From the IMG/VR virus record IMGVR_UViG_2654587686_000016: a stretch of 13,445 bases of DNA. The stretch is one strand, 5' to 3'. Below, piece after piece: positions 2,389 to 9,275 of the stretch. The notes under the pieces were generated by a model. It searched no databases. It was not told the origin of the DNA and saw only the letters and a list, made by a program, of their open reading frames with translations. Every line of letters begins with the position of its first letter. Within the stretch, counting starts at the first letter, position 1. This DNA is from a virus. Lineage: Duplodnaviria; Heunggongvirae; Uroviricota; Caudoviricetes. Position numbers and translations under genes: made by a program.

Positions 2389-3486
2389 ATGACAATTTCA
2401 TATATTCCTATTCTGAAAGCGAAACGTTCTGAGTTATCAGCTTTATCGCAGCTATCCATTGAAAAGAAATCAAAAATTTTGCCATTACTCGAAATTGAAC
2501 CAGTGCCAATTGACCCTGATTCAGGTATTGCCTTAAAGAGTTATAACGAGACTCTTATAGAGTTCGGAAAGAAAGTCTCAAAATCTTGCTCAGATATGCA
2601 AGGTGTTTATATTGATGGATTATTAATTGAAGAGCATTTTATTTCTCCTGAAGATCATTACCCTATAATAAATGCGGTTAATCAAGTTAGAGATATGGAG
2701 ATAAGAGTTATTCCTGTCAGTTCACCAACTCGCCCATCTAACTATAAAAGAGCGATTGATGAATTAATGCAGAATGAAATATGCTTGAGATTAACCACGT
2801 TAGATCTGGTTAACCCACAATTAATAACGCATTACATTAATCATCTGGGAATTCCTTTATCAAATATTGATATAATTATTGACTTAAGAGATGAGTTAAC
2901 CGAGGATAAAATTAATTCCGGCGAACTATATACTTTGGCAATGGGATTGATAAACAATCTGGCGCACCTCAATGAATACAGAAAAGTGATTCTTTCTGGG
3001 GGTTCATTTCCTACAGATCTCAGTGATATTTCTGTTGGTCTATATTCTCAACCTCGAATCGAGTGGATTTTATGGCAGAGTTTAATGAATAGAAAAGAAC
3101 TTGCCAGAAATGTGATTTATAGTGATTATGGAGTACAGCACCCCGACTTTAATAGGCTTTCGACGCGATTCCCTAGCGTATCTGCCAGCGTCAGATACTC
3201 TGGAGATAATGACTTTTGGGTATTTCGAGGAAGAGTAGCTAATCGCTTTGGTTATGAACAATATGGTAAACATAGTGAGGATATTCTTGCTCATCGAGAA
3301 TATTCAGGGCCTACATTCTGTGCGGGAGATAGAGACATAGAATATTATGCAAACGAGTATCAAGCCTACAAAGCCAATCCCTCTGGTAACTATAAATTTG
3401 GTAGCCCAGAGGTATGGCGTAGGATTGGGCAAAACCATCACATAACTAAGGTTGTTGAGCAACTCGCCACTCTTTACGGGCTTTAA
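2389..3486 (+). CDS. Uncharacterised 365-aa protein, gene A of an AT-rich accessory cassette
   Basis: Long uninterrupted ORF at about 33-35% GC (counted on two 60-nt samples), with a weak SD (AAGG) 9 nt upstream. Hydrophilic, with no TM segment and no catalytic motif I can name. Preceded by a ~500-bp AT-rich ORF-free region. Confidence 0.8.
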   Translation: MTISYIPILKAKRSELSALSQLSIEKKSKILPLLEIEPVPIDPDSGIALKSYNETLIEFGKKVSKSCSDMQGVYIDGLLIEEHFISPEDHYPIINAVNQVRDMEIRVIPVSSPTRPSNYKRAIDELMQNEICLRLTTLDLVNPQLITHYINHLGIPLSNIDIIIDLRDELTEDKINSGELYTLAMGLINNLAHLNEYRKVILSGGSFPTDLSDISVGLYSQPRIEWILWQSLMNRKELARNVIYSDYGVQHPDFNRLSTRFPSVSASVRYSGDNDFWVFRGRVANRFGYEQYGKHSEDILAHREYSGPTFCAGDRDIEYYANEYQAYKANPSGNYKFGSPEVWRRIGQNHHITKVVEQLATLYGL

Positions 3487-6332: not shown

Positions 6333-6758
6333 TTAGTGCATCACCACAGCATTCCCTGCCGGGCCGCCGCGATTCATCTGGTCATACAAAACAACCGCTG
6401 ACGCAACAAAATCATCGACATCCTTCACCAGCCGATCCCTCCGTTCGACGATCTCACGGTAATATTCAGAACTGTGGCTGCGCATACGGGCCACCAGCAA
6501 AGGCGGCATCGCCTTTTCGATCGCCGGTAACAGAGCCTGCATTTTTTCAACAGCATCAGGGGTGTCTTTATCCAGCCAACGGAAAATTTTCTGGGTATTA
6601 CGGGCCAGGGCTTCCGGATGGCTGTCGTCGTACAGTTCAGGGAACGTCATCCCCAGTTCGAAATAAGTCCGGGCTATTTCAGCTGCAGGAACTTTCTCAC
6701 CATCAGGGTATGCCCAGGCATTCATCGCCATGCGGATGTGCTCATGTTTGATTTTCAT
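6333..6758 (-). CDS. ydaT: YdaT-like protein (141 aa)
   Basis: Second gene of the operon divergent from the repressor, overlapping the upstream cro-like gene by 17 nt. Length matches K-12 Rac YdaT (about 140 aa, from memory), with SD GAGG upstream. Confidence 0.7.
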   Translation of the reverse strand: MKIKHEHIRMAMNAWAYPDGEKVPAAEIARTYFELGMTFPELYDDSHPEALARNTQKIFRWLDKDTPDAVEKMQALLPAIEKAMPPLLVARMRSHSSEYYREIVERRDRLVKDVDDFVASAVVLYDQMNRGGPAGNAVVMH

Positions 6759-7065
6759 GAATCATTTGCCTCTTGATGCTTCGGGTATGATCGTTTTCGT
6801 CATTTGGTTGCTTCATCGACATATTCTGCGAATAACATGACGAGCGTCGTAAGTATGTCCAATCAACATCAGGACGAAGTTCTTCACACAGGACACCACC
6901 TTTTGTTGCTCGTTCAATCGCAGGACATCTCTCAGCAGGTAACTGACGTACACCTTTGATCCATTGATTTACGCTTGGAGGAGATACACCTAAAAGCCTA
7001 GCCATTGCTGATTGCCCACCGACAACAGCACAAGCTCGTTTGAATGAATAGTTATCTTTTTTCAT
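6742..7065 (-). CDS. ydaS: Cro/CI-type HTH DNA-binding protein, YdaS-like (first gene of the rightward-equivalent early operon)
   Basis: MKKDNYSFKRACAVVGGQSAMARLLGVSPPSVNQWIKGVRQLPAERCPAIERA closely resembles Rac YdaS as I remember it. The ATG at 7065 has GGAG 9 nt upstream; the upstream in-frame ATG in the ORF track lies within the RBS. Divergent from the repressor gene. Confidence 0.75.
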   Translation of the reverse strand: MKKDNYSFKRACAVVGGQSAMARLLGVSPPSVNQWIKGVRQLPAERCPAIERATKGGVLCEELRPDVDWTYLRRSSCYSQNMSMKQPNDENDHTRSIKRQMIHENQT

Positions 7066-7089
7066 CGAATGAACTCCAAAAAACACGCA

Positions 7090-7140
7090 ACAATATTAGG
7101 CATAGCCTAATGAAATTGTCAATAGGCTATGCCTAATACA
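7090..7140. promoter_or_regulatory. OR-like control region: two 17-bp palindromic operators overlapping a sigma70-like promoter for the ydaS-like operon
   Basis: Operator ATTAGGCATAGCCTAAT at 7094-7110 is a perfect palindrome (arms ATTAGGC / GCCTAAT); a second copy (reverse complement ATTAGGCATAGCCTATT) is at 7120-7136. On the - strand, TTGACA (7121-7116), an 18-nt spacer and TAATAT (7097-7092) form a promoter pointing at the ydaS-like gene. Confidence 0.65.
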
Positions 7141-7189
7141 TCGAGAGTAGGGATTGCCTAACGCGATGCGCATAGGAGACTATTAAGCA

Positions 7190-7666
7190 ATGCTTAGTGG
7201 TAAAGACTTAGGCCGAGCGATAGAGCAGGCCATTAACAAAAAAATTGCATCAGGAGCCGTCAAATCAAAGGCGGAAATCGCACGTCATTTCAAAGTCCAA
7301 CCACCATCAATCCATGACTGGATTAAGAAAGGTTCGATAAGTAAAGACAAACTTCCAGAACTATGGCGTTTCTTTTCTGATGTGGTTGGTCCAGAGCATT
7401 GGGGGCTTAACGAATACCCCATACCAACCCCATCCGCTTCAGATACAAAAAGTGAACTTTTAGACATAAACAGCCTTTATCAAGCCGCCTCTGATGAAAA
7501 AAGAGCAATTGTGGCTTTCATCTTATCTGGAAATGCTACGGAGCCTAGTTGGGTTGATCATGACGTTCGCGCCTACATTGCCGCAATGGAAATGAAGGTA
7601 GCTAACTATCTGAAAAATCAAGAATCAAAACGGAAAAGCCAGAACATCACCAAGACAGGAACTTAA
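7190..7666 (+). CDS. racR: RacR-like prophage repressor (158 aa)
   Basis: 158-aa ORF, the same length as K-12 RacR from memory, divergent from the cro-like gene and flanked on both sides by the same operator sequence. N-terminal HTH-like segment; AGGAG 12 nt upstream of the ATG. Confidence 0.8.
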   Translation: MLSGKDLGRAIEQAINKKIASGAVKSKAEIARHFKVQPPSIHDWIKKGSISKDKLPELWRFFSDVVGPEHWGLNEYPIPTPSASDTKSELLDINSLYQAASDEKRAIVAFILSGNATEPSWVDHDVRAYIAAMEMKVANYLKNQESKRKSQNITKTGT

Positions 7667-7680
7667 ACTTATATGGTCCG

Positions 7681-7702
7681 ACGGGAAATTCCTAGTTCCC
7701 GT
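7681..7702 (+). terminator. Candidate weak terminator/hairpin downstream of the repressor gene
   Basis: Stem ACGGGAA / TTCCCGT (7 bp) with an 8-nt loop, 15 nt after the racR-like stop, followed by a weak T-rich stretch (TAGTTAAC). Confidence 0.3.
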
Positions 7703-7759
7703 TAGTTAACTCCTACTACCTCTTCCACAAACCATCACCTATTAGGTTGCGCCCAAATT

Positions 7760-7803
7760 ATTAGGCATAGCCTATTGACAAGTAATTAGGCATTTCCTAT
7801 AGT
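7760..7803 (+). promoter_or_regulatory. OL/PL-like promoter with overlapping operator, driving the ydaF-like through exonuclease, xis and int genes
   Basis: Operator copy ATTAGGCATAGCCTATT at 7760-7776. TTGACA at 7775-7780, an exactly 17-nt spacer containing an operator half-site (ATTAGGCAT), then TATAGT at 7798-7803. Mirrors the OR promoter. Confidence 0.6.
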
Positions 7804-7984
7804 TTTCCCATACCAACCCATCCCGTCCCACACAATACAGGGCAATACCTCGAGTTACCAGGCAGTGGTCAGGGGTTAAGTAGCCAGCCCGAGGCGTAAG
7901 AACATGACGGCAGGGTTCAACTTTAATAACTATGCAGCAGGTTTTTGTTCCGCTACCCCGGCGTTAAGGGGAAATGAGGTCAGC

Positions 7985-8140
7985 ATGGATACTATCGATC
8001 TTGGCAACAGCGAATCTCTGGTATGTGGCGTGTTCCCCAACCAGGACGGTACGTTCACCGCAATGACGTATACCAAAAGCAAAACGTTTAAAACCGAATC
8101 TGGAGCGCGTCGCTGGCTGGAAAGAAATTCAGGTGGGTGA
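7985..8140 (+). CDS. Small early protein (51 aa), YdaF-like
   Basis: Internal ATG of the 78-aa ORF with GAGG 7 nt upstream (MDTIDLGNSESLVCGVFPNQDGTFTAMTYTKSKTFKTESGARRWLERNSGG). Size and position, first gene after the PL-like promoter, match the small Rac gene next to racR. Confidence 0.5.
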   Translation: MDTIDLGNSESLVCGVFPNQDGTFTAMTYTKSKTFKTESGARRWLERNSGG

Positions 8141-8141
8141 T

Positions 8142-8270
8142 ATGGATTTCGACACAATCATGGAAAAGGCTTACGAAGAATACTTCGAAGGCCTTGCCGA
8201 AGGCGAAGAAGCTCACAGCTTCAACGAATTTAAACAGGTGCTTTCCAGTTCGGCAAAATCTAATGGCTGA
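8142..8270 (+). CDS. Small early protein (42 aa), YdaG-like, translationally coupled to the previous gene
   Basis: Not in the ORF track because it is below the size cutoff. ATG at 8142 lies 1 nt after the upstream TGA (8138-8140) with AGGTGGGTGA as RBS. Translation MDFDTIMEKAYEEYFEGLAEGEEAHSFNEFKQVLSSSAKSNG. Confidence 0.45.
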   Translation: MDFDTIMEKAYEEYFEGLAEGEEAHSFNEFKQVLSSSAKSNG

Positions 8271-8518: not shown

Positions 8519-9086
8519 TAGCTAACCAACGAAGCTAAGGTTGGTAATTAAGGAGTTCTCCACGGGTGAGGTGGAGTGCTTGCGCCGGACACGGGTGAGC
8601 ATCCGGCACTGACAGTTTACTGAAAGGATATTTCCCTGAAAAGTCAGACCATAACGCGAAAGCGCACGGCGAGGTAGCTGGTTCATAGATAGCCTGTCGT
8701 TAAATTTTTGTCGACCGTGCGCTTCCGGTTGTGGCAATCCGCGAAATGGCGCGGCGGTAAGTATGGCGGGGTTATTCCTTCCCCCGTTGCGGACACCGGG
8801 TTGTCAGGTTGACCATACGCTTAAGTGACAACCCCGCTGCAACGCCCTCTGTTATCAATTTTCTGGTGACGTTTGGCGGTATCAGTTTTACTCCGTGACT
8901 GCTCTGCCGCCCTTTTTAAAGTGAATTTTGTGATGTGGTGAATGCGGCTGAGCGCACGCGGAACAGTTAAAACCAAAAACAGTGTTATGGGTGGATTCTC
9001 TGTATCCGGCGTTAATTGTTAACTGGTTAACGTCACCTGGAGGCACCAGGCACCGCATCACAAAATTCATTGTTGAGGACGCGATA

Positions 9087-9275
9087 ATGGAAACGTTATT
9101 ACCAAACGTTAATACGTCTGAAGGTTGTTTTGAAATTGGTGTCACTATCAGTAACCCTGTATTTACTGAAGATGCCATTAACAAGAGAAAACACGAACGG
9201 GAGTTATTAAATAAAATATGCATTCTTTCAATGCTGGCCCGTTTACGTCCGATACAAAAAGGATGCTGGCAATGA
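9087..9275 (+). CDS. Small hypothetical protein (62 aa)
   Basis: Internal ATG of the 97-aa ORF with GAGGA 7 nt upstream (METLLPNVNTSEGCFEIGVT...). Its stop overlaps the next ATG as ATGA. Confidence 0.5.
   Translation: METLLPNVNTSEGCFEIGVTISNPVFTEDAINKRKHERELLNKICILSMLARLRPIQKGCWQ

Follow-up and report, generated by a model that had tools for sequence, protein, structure and literature searches.

We analysed a 13,445-nucleotide stretch of DNA (IMG/VR virus record IMGVR_UViG_2654587686_000016, a member of the Caudoviricetes; hereafter the window), in which the gene of a CI-like repressor, racR, is flanked on both sides by copies of one and the same operator. These sites very probably represent the RacR operators of a Rac-type lambdoid prophage, arranged as two sets over two outward-facing sigma-70 promoters. 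The layout is the canonical lambdoid one, consisting of a right operator and promoter (OR/PR) and a left operator and promoter (OL/PL), of which the OR half is proven in Escherichia coli K-12, while the OL half, although to be expected, has apparently not been reported for Rac. Over the segment 6300-8200, many E. coli chromosomes show 99.7-99.8% identity and have racR as the annotated central gene, and the racR product of the window is 91% identical to K-12 RacR; the repressor had rightly been called RacR-like in an initial annotation made from the sequence alone.

The window was searched for the motif ATTAGGCNNNGCCTAAT, that is ATTAGGC-N3-GCCTAAT, with up to 3 mismatches allowed, and the outcome was compared with 200 shuffles. 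Seven matches were obtained against 0.53 expected in 13.4 kb, a number reached by none of the 200 shuffles, and all seven are confined to two clusters either side of racR, four on the OR side and three on the OL side (Table 1), which bears out the claim of the initial annotation that operators lie on both sides of the repressor gene. The exact hexamer TTAGGC also occurs seven times in the window, and each of these copies falls inside 7096-7213 or 7761-7791. Neighbouring OR-side sites are 26, 25 and 36 bp apart, those of the OL side 19 and 25 bp. The site is built of two complementary arms of 7 nt with a non-symmetric 3-nt centre between them, so that the term 17-bp palindrome, taken strictly, does not apply. 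As for the individual sites, the copy proposed at 7760-7776 was found exactly there, and the two proposed at 7094-7110 and 7120-7136 do exist but begin one base further on (7095-7111 and 7121-7137); two other OR-side sites (7146-7162 and 7182-7198) had been missed, and what had been described as degenerate half-sites at 7741 and 7785 turned out to be full-length sites with 3 mismatches each (7741-7757 and 7785-7801).

A consensus scan of positions 6600-8200 returned only two promoter-like matches, which face outward and flank racR (7190-7666). The PL-like promoter is the single best consensus match in the whole window, and the PR-like promoter (PydaS) is one of three matches scoring 10/12. At each promoter, one operator abuts the -35 hexamer or overlaps it by 2 nt, and a second operator fills the spacer and overlaps the -10 hexamer. 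The -35 hexamer and operator of both sides together make up a perfect 23-nt inverted repeat (TTGTCAATAGGCTATGCCTAATA at 7116-7138 and TATTAGGCATAGCCTATTGACAA at 7759-7781). Because this repeat links both sides, the expression "mirror-image promoters" used in the initial annotation is an accurate one, in keeping with the promoter scan. Both promoters named there are confirmed; the degenerate -10 part of the accompanying formula, TTGACA-N17/18-TA(A/T)A(G/T)T, does not fit TAATAT.

A perfect inverted repeat of this kind might alternatively delimit a mobile or invertible cassette, or be the relic of a duplication or gene conversion. In favour of such an origin, the identity over 23 nt extends even to the unconstrained 3-nt centre, lambdoid phages are known to exchange immunity regions as modules, and a mosaic junction is present near 7965. 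Nevertheless, the repeats consist exactly of the footprinted repressor site and the -35 hexamer, and no transposase or invertase accompanies them, as judged from Pfam and an annotated twin record. A mobile element was rejected on the grounds that other genera conserve only the motif and the hexamer positions, with a distance to the repressor gene that varies from 68 bp to 1.9 kb past its stop codon, and we consider a cassette or duplication origin extremely unlikely.

Table 1. Operators, promoters, genes and other features located in the window
Feature	Positions	Strand	Mismatches	Context	Basis
OR-side operator ATTAGGCATAGCCTAAT	7095..7111		0 (perfect)	in PR spacer and -10	motif search
OR-side operator AATAGGCTATGCCTAAT	7121..7137		1	inverted near-copy; overlaps PR -35 by 2 nt	within 23-nt inverted repeat
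OR-side weak operator AGTAGGGATTGCCTAAC	7146..7162		3	racR promoter region	motif search
OR-side weak operator ATTAAGCAATGCTTAGT	7182..7198		3	spans racR ATG	motif search
Lone TTAGGC half-site	7208..7213	+		within racR, ~25 bp past ATG site	hexamer search
OL-side weak site ATTAGGTTGCGCCCAAA	7741..7757		3	19 bp to next site; least certain site	
OL-side operator A ATTAGGCATAGCCTATT	7760..7776		1	last 2 nt are the first 2 nt of PL -35	
OL-side operator B ATTAGGCATTTCCTATA	7785..7801		3	in PL spacer and -10	motif search
PR-like promoter (PydaS), TTGACA-N18-TAATAT	7093..7122	-		-35 at 7122..7117	promoter scan, 10/12
PL-like promoter, TTGACA-N17-TATAGT	7775..7803	+		predicted start near 7810	promoter scan, 11/12
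racR, CI-like repressor, 158 aa	7190..7666	+			cluster P0009
ydaS-like cro analogue, 107 aa	6742..7065	-		ATG 7065..7063	Pfam YdaS_toxin 4.6e-30, P22_Cro 1.2e-08
ydaT-like gene (functional analogue of lambda cII)	6333..6758	-		second gene of rightward operon	Pfam YdaT_toxin E 2.8e-10
YdaT box TTGATTTTCATGAATCAT	6748..6765			spans ydaT start codon	read from sequence
8-bp hairpin	7680..7703	+		just past racR stop	fold -13.2 kcal/mol, z -1.9
Predicted untranslated leader of left operon	7810..7984	+		5' end C-rich, G-poor	
First left-operon gene, DUF1391, YdaF-like	7985..8140	+			Pfam DUF1391 1.7e-27
DicF RNA	8861-8912				Rfam
dicB	about 9087-9275				

That the OR side consists of RacR operators over PydaS is already an experimental fact in K-12. 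Krishnamurthi and colleagues (2017) showed by electrophoretic mobility shift assay and chromatin immunoprecipitation (ChIP) that RacR binds the 123-bp racR-ydaS intergenic region, in which they highlighted GCCTAA/TTAGGC repeats (PMC5700373). The Mruk laboratory (Nucleic Acids Research, 2022) obtained DNase I footprints of RacR, which gave ATTAGGC as the monomer motif and (T/A)TAGGC-n3-GCCTA(T/A) as operators, used primer extension and mutagenesis of the -10 to assign the single ydaS start to TTGACA-N18-TAATAT, and located three promoters of racR (PMC9638921). The same laboratory later described, for K-12, four inverted repeats and a RacR that is octameric in solution (PMC11014345). The window shares with K-12 Rac the operator motif, the PydaS hexamers with their 18-nt spacer, and the arrangement of four sites, placed at -87, -61, -36 and 0 relative to the racR ATG. 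It differs from K-12 in having a perfect first site and other central triplets, as well as at the mapped racR -10 boxes (7133-7185), where GAGAAT of PracR3 is replaced by GAGACT and AGTAAG of PracR2 is not kept; racR promoter strength may therefore differ between Rac variants.

In K-12, RacR protects the ydaS promoter at its lowest concentration and the region before the racR ATG at a higher one (PMC9638921). This agrees with the mismatch gradient seen in the window, where the two sites over PR have 0 and 1 mismatches and the two over the racR promoters and ATG have 3 each, and it supports, for the OR side, the earlier suggestion of operators of graded affinity. Taken site by site, the K-12 counterpart of the 7095..7111 operator coincides with the ydaST promoter, the one protected first (PMC9638921), while that of the 7182..7198 operator has been described as operator O3, overlapping the start codon, and the K-12 racR coding sequence, like that of the window, has a single TTAGGC further downstream (PMC9638921). 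The 7146..7162 operator is homologous to the AATAGGAATTGCCTAA site that relatives keep at -35 from the ATG, and a site centred on the ATG was found in the loci of nearly all RacR relatives. In Escherichia this last operator (7182-7198) carries symmetric changes in both arms (TTAAGC...GCTTAG), and other genera retain TTAGGC on the non-coding side; the same site is the published off-target site of the C.Csp231I regulator.

On the OL side, module conservation, linkage to the RacR domain and derepression of the left arm argue strongly, if indirectly, for the same reading, and RacR would bind there as well, as suggested by the identity of the motif, its conservation and its association with the RacR DNA-binding domain. 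The three OL sites and the PL promoter are also present in K-12 and in E. ruysiae. A genome survey covered 27 loci encoding RacR relatives in gamma- and beta-proteobacteria, with 2.5 kb fetched for the OL pair. Nearly all of these loci have sites centred at about -60, -35 and 0 from the repressor ATG, and in 14 of them a downstream pair of sites was found exactly 25 bp apart, namely in four Escherichia-type loci (one filed under a Nanosynbacter metagenome-assembled genome), Mixta, Morganella, Proteus, Erwinia, a Pseudomonadota metagenome-assembled genome, three Achromobacter, Pigmentiphaga and Burkholderia. Two isolated phages, vB_EcoS-683R6 and Klebsiella phage KpF5, also carry the downstream OL module.

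The OL pair always reads ATTAGGC-N3-GCCTATTGACA-N4-ATTAGGC-N3-GCCTAATAT, that is, a site, TTGACA overlapping the end of this site, N4, a second site and TAATAT. Operator A is kept as ATTAGGC-N3-GCCTATTGACA in 12 lineages, and the counterparts of operator B in other genera have 0-3 mismatches, mostly 0-1; the PL hexamers are likewise conserved across lineages, the -10 being TAATAT outside Escherichia. Information content is high across the sites and hexamers and low in the flanks, where the DNA is not conserved, and a site with at most 1 mismatch is expected by chance 0.0008 times per 5 kb. The pair is located 68-141 bp past the repressor stop codon in most Enterobacterales, and at 0.8-1.9 kb where other genes intervene. 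Since PR, too, is made up of this module, on the cro strand, in 18 lineages, PR and PL can be regarded as paralogous units. Covariation between repressor and operator gave no test, since the DNA-binding domain hardly varies among all the homologues obtained (32 invariant positions in the N-terminal domain across 18 homologues), and for this reason the conservation of the module against diverged flanks was used instead.

In the reverse direction, viral contigs were scanned for the exact module, which was present in at least 120 contigs among the matches listed. The RacR N-terminal domain is encoded in 117 of the 120 module-bearing contigs listed. In 116, it is followed on the same strand by the module, at a distance from the ATG of 548-583 nt (94 contigs) or 1176-2182 nt (22 contigs). 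These figures measure linkage and orientation and not the frequency of the module, the contigs having been selected on the module itself. Besides this selection, several points weigh against an OL/PL assignment: (i) no OL pair occurs within the 2.5 kb fetched in 13 of the 27 genome loci, a group made up largely of distant, S24-containing relatives and including one Klebsiella locus whose OR sites have decayed, (ii) the right half of site B is degraded in Escherichia (3 mismatches), and the site at 7741, the third of OL, is confined to Escherichia-type loci, so that three graded OL sites are less secure than two, (iii) no binding, footprint or start-site data for OL/PL were found in the literature searched, (iv) the silencing of kil in K-12 has been modelled as Rho termination, inside racR, of transcripts from the racR promoter, and not as the result of a repressed PL (PMC4150792), and (v) K-12 lacking racR, the intergenic region and ydaS is viable (PMC5700373), which means that an unrepressed PL is not lethal by itself.

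Published expression data provide the third line of evidence. When racR was lowered through an off-target regulator, ydaF, ydaG, ydaE and racC went up about 40-fold and kilR, ydaC and ralA more than 70-fold, racR being the sole Rac gene to fall (PMC6765115). According to published results, xisR and intR rise about 100-fold when RacR falls, and CRISPR interference at +3, +58 and +208 of racR derepresses ydaG, kilR, ydaE, racC, recET, ralR, xisR and intR. A block inside racR should cut read-through, yet the left arm rises. To account for these data, a promoter that is repressed by RacR is needed downstream of racR, the very place where PL is located.

The same results bear on the possibility that the left-hand sites are auxiliary operators, looping to OR for repression of PR and autoregulation of racR, and that the left arm is transcribed by Rho-limited read-through from the racR promoter. 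The Rho model of kil silencing is in line with this proposal, and an octamer in solution would be well suited to bridging two operator sets. However, the hexamers on the + strand form the best promoter match of the window (11/12), TTGACA and TAATAT are conserved across distant lineages whereas their flanks are not, and the left-arm genes rise while racR mRNA falls 20-100-fold, including under CRISPR interference inside racR, which is the opposite of what read-through predicts. Purely auxiliary operators thus appear quite unlikely.

A different regulator could also be involved, the left-hand sites being used mainly by the Cro-like YdaS, and not by RacR, for shutting off early-left transcription after induction. 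A precedent is lambda, in which Cro and CI act on common operators. In prophage CP-933P of E. coli O157:H7, both PaaR2 and YdaS repress PL933P and protect overlapping DNA (PMC8630535). Yet the motif footprinted with RacR is matched equally well by the OL and the OR sites, the occurrence of the module follows that of the RacR N-terminal domain, and depletion of RacR derepresses the left-arm genes. Binding of YdaS would complement that of RacR rather than replace it, and we hold a predominant use by YdaS to be very unlikely.

With RacR as the main ligand of both sets, the proposed mechanism would be as follows. Each promoter module comprises a distal 17-bp site running into the -35 TTGACA and a proximal site that fills the spacer and overlaps the -10, and RacR dimers on these two sites would occlude both hexamers and thus exclude RNA polymerase. 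On the - strand, this would silence ydaS (cro-like) and ydaT (cII-like), and on the + strand the early-left operon, consisting of DUF1391, ydfC, DicF, dicB, the exonuclease, the DUF4224 protein and int. The weaker OR sites at 7146 and 7182, which cover the racR promoters and start codon, would confer negative autoregulation at high RacR. In addition, OR and OL might be bridged cooperatively by the RacR octamer, for which the octamer seen in solution and the presence of two sets some 640 bp apart form a circumstantial basis; between genera, the -35-overlapping sites lie 591-641 bp apart, and helical phasing of OR and OL across genera revealed no consistent phase.

Few cryptic prophages have been studied as much as Rac, and RacR belongs to the small group of transcription factors that are essential in E. 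coli K-12. The published K-12 RacR papers treat only the intergenic region and never mention ydaG, ydaF, kilR or a downstream site in connection with binding, and a search for literature on RacR with looping, with ChIP-exo, ChIP-seq or systematic evolution of ligands by exponential enrichment (SELEX), or on KilS, found nothing relevant. The left operator of Rac hence appears to be undescribed, although an earlier description in subscription journals, EcoCyc or RegulonDB is possible. That a Rac left operator set has been overlooked, and that it changes at once the reading of the octamer, of left-arm control and of Rho silencing, is a combined proposition that we put forward tentatively, with somewhat less than even confidence.

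Were it true, the RacR octamer would connect two dimers bound at OR with two bound at OL, forming a loop of some 640 bp, instead of occupying four intergenic sites; PL, and not read-through from the racR promoter, would let RacR control kilR, recET and xis-int in K-12, and DicF and DicB here; and the C-rich leader just past PL would be the place where Rho adds a second layer of silencing. A 2023 paper noted that the RacR regulon had not been characterised in detail, described xisR and intR as "far away" and assigned the octamer to the four intergenic repeats (PMC11014345). A RacR-repressed PL just downstream of racR would offer a simple explanation for the regulon, for the control of the distant xisR and intR, and for the octamer. 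In Rac-type phages of many proteobacteria, the conserved module could also serve to locate quickly the early-left promoter and the cargo slot that separates the repressor gene from OL. In principle this is lambda biology as found in textbooks, and the gain lies in completeness, not in concept.

In lambda, cI is located between OR/PR-PRM and OL/PL, with several 17-bp pseudo-symmetric sites about 25 bp apart at each promoter. The window is similar in that its repressor gene lies between two divergent, outward-facing early promoters, each under multiple 17-bp sites spaced by about 25 bp, and has its own promoter covered by weaker sites; cro-like and cII-like genes run divergently and are followed by replication-type ones, the repressor is octameric, and a co-oriented left arm has int at its far end. 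It differs from lambda in that RacR is devoid of an S24 autocleavage domain, OL begins 75 bp past the racR stop codon with no rexAB-like genes in between, OR and OL are about 640 bp apart against about 2.3 kb in lambda, the Rac-type OR has four sites, one of them across the start codon, and no N or nut antitermination element was identified in the window.

Two other prophages are also comparable. In CP-933P, the PaaR2/YdaS system acts on PR933P, PRM933P and PL933P/OL1-3, and PL was shown to be repressed by both regulators (PMC8630535). Common to CP-933P and the window are a rightward operon of the ydaS-ydaT type, a PL with PR-like -35 and -10 hexamers and its own operator set, and an octameric repressor, whereas the repressor and operator sequences of CP-933P are unrelated (operator consensus GTTTAGTAA) and toxin-antitoxin genes are co-transcribed with its repressor. 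In Qin, which is regulated by DicA/DicC, dicBp is a PL analogue with three operators and drives ydfABC-dicF-dicB (PMC10448788). The left operon of the window is Qin-like in its content (ydfC, DicF RNA, dicB) but is placed under RacR-type operators, unlike the Qin operon, which is under DicA operators.

From racR onwards, the window is homologous to K-12 Rac across the left-hand sites and some 165 nt of leader, up to a point near 7965. The prophage reads as a mosaic, with a Rac-type immunity module (ydaT, ydaS, racR, OL/PL and leader) on one side of the junction and a Qin-like left arm (ydfC, DicF, dicB) on the other, and as a consequence DicF and DicB would be under RacR-type and not DicA-type control. 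The left arm comprises, on the + strand, DUF1391, ydfC, DicF RNA, dicB, DUF1482, an exonuclease, DUF4224 and the integrase, and all annotated genes from 7985 to int are on this strand except a small hypothetical open reading frame at ~8522-8686. The limits of the coding sequences of the ydaS-like and DUF1391 genes were taken from the annotated twin record (L002). By Pfam, the divergent gene that had been called cro-like indeed encodes a helix-turn-helix protein of the YdaS/P22-Cro type. In a 99.8%-identical record, the ydaT-like gene bears the annotation "toxin YdaT family protein"; it is followed by the gene of an HTH_36/DnaD_N-like protein (Pfam). The YdaT box is the reverse complement of the box footprinted in K-12, ATGATTCATGAAAATCAA (PMC11879457), and is thus an identical site; cII-like activation of a reverse racR promoter is therefore probably kept in the window prophage.

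No Pfam match was obtained for the RacR of the window, hence no S24 autocleavage domain was detected, its C-terminal domain being without a peptidase signature, and no solved structure resembles RacR by sequence; models of its fold have been published. Beta-proteobacterial relatives have N-terminal domains 50-78% identical, the same operators, and a Peptidase_S24 C-terminal domain (e.g. P0101 and P0102). Because the same domain and operators occur there together with Peptidase_S24, the RacR DNA-binding domain can be assigned to the classical CI-like lineage, of which the enterobacterial form would have swapped the SOS-cleavable domain for a different oligomerisation domain. Fusions of the RacR N-terminal domain to Peptidase_S24 were seen in prophages of Achromobacter, Pigmentiphaga, Bordetella, Herbaspirillum, Aeromonas and Pectobacterium (loci L013, L015, L018, L021, L022, L024, L026 and L029; proteins P0101, P0102 and P0117), with RacR-type operators upstream in most of them, though not clearly in the Aeromonas locus.

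The number of OR sites also varies within the family, Escherichia-type loci having four (-87, -61, -36 and 0 from the ATG) versus three in most relatives (-60, -35 and 0). In Escherichia, the -35 hexamer of PR lies one operator unit farther from racR, and TTGACA is gone from the site formerly linked to the -35 (7146-7162); judged from these positions, the difference corresponds to one extra promoter-proximal unit.

Between the repressor gene and OL, and co-oriented with the repressor, some loci encode a 384-389-aa protein with an HSDR_N nuclease domain, among them L031 (Klebsiella phage KpF5; 3649-4803), L035 (7500-8669) and about 15 other IMG/VR loci. This gene, which occupies the position of lambda rexAB, may be a lysogen-expressed cargo or defence gene; PADLOC placed it in no known defence family.

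The hairpin that follows the racR stop codon is found at the same place in K-12 and has no clear T-run. It is a weak candidate terminator, which may separate racR transcripts from the left operon and limit read-through, and the scan of the window revealed no strong intrinsic terminator on the + strand. Up to ~7965, the PL leader shows high conservation relative to K-12 Rac, including a nearly invariant block, GGGCAATAC.TCGAGTTACCAGGCAGTGGT.AGGGGTTAAGTAGCCAGCCCGAGGCGTA; it has neither a stable predicted fold (z +1.1) nor an Rfam match. A structured leader RNA was dropped as a candidate on this fold score and on the Rfam search, in which sok and DicF were the only hits of the window. An exact 13-nt direct repeat, CCCATACCAACCC, is present at 7418-7430, in the racR linker region, and at 7807-7819, right after the -10 of PL; by a rough estimate, chance would yield ~0.01 repeats of this kind in 1.1 kb. 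Its second copy begins a C-rich, G-poor stretch (7807-7850) that is partly conserved in K-12 and is suggestive of a Rho loading site.

Elsewhere in the window, the sok antitoxin RNA was detected at 1826-2001 on the - strand (Rfam, 119.8 bits), which marks a hok/sok module, and a 365-aa open reading frame at 2389-3486 on the + strand matches Pfam Beta_protein (PF14350), at a place occupied by an IS481 transposase in the closest annotated E. coli record.

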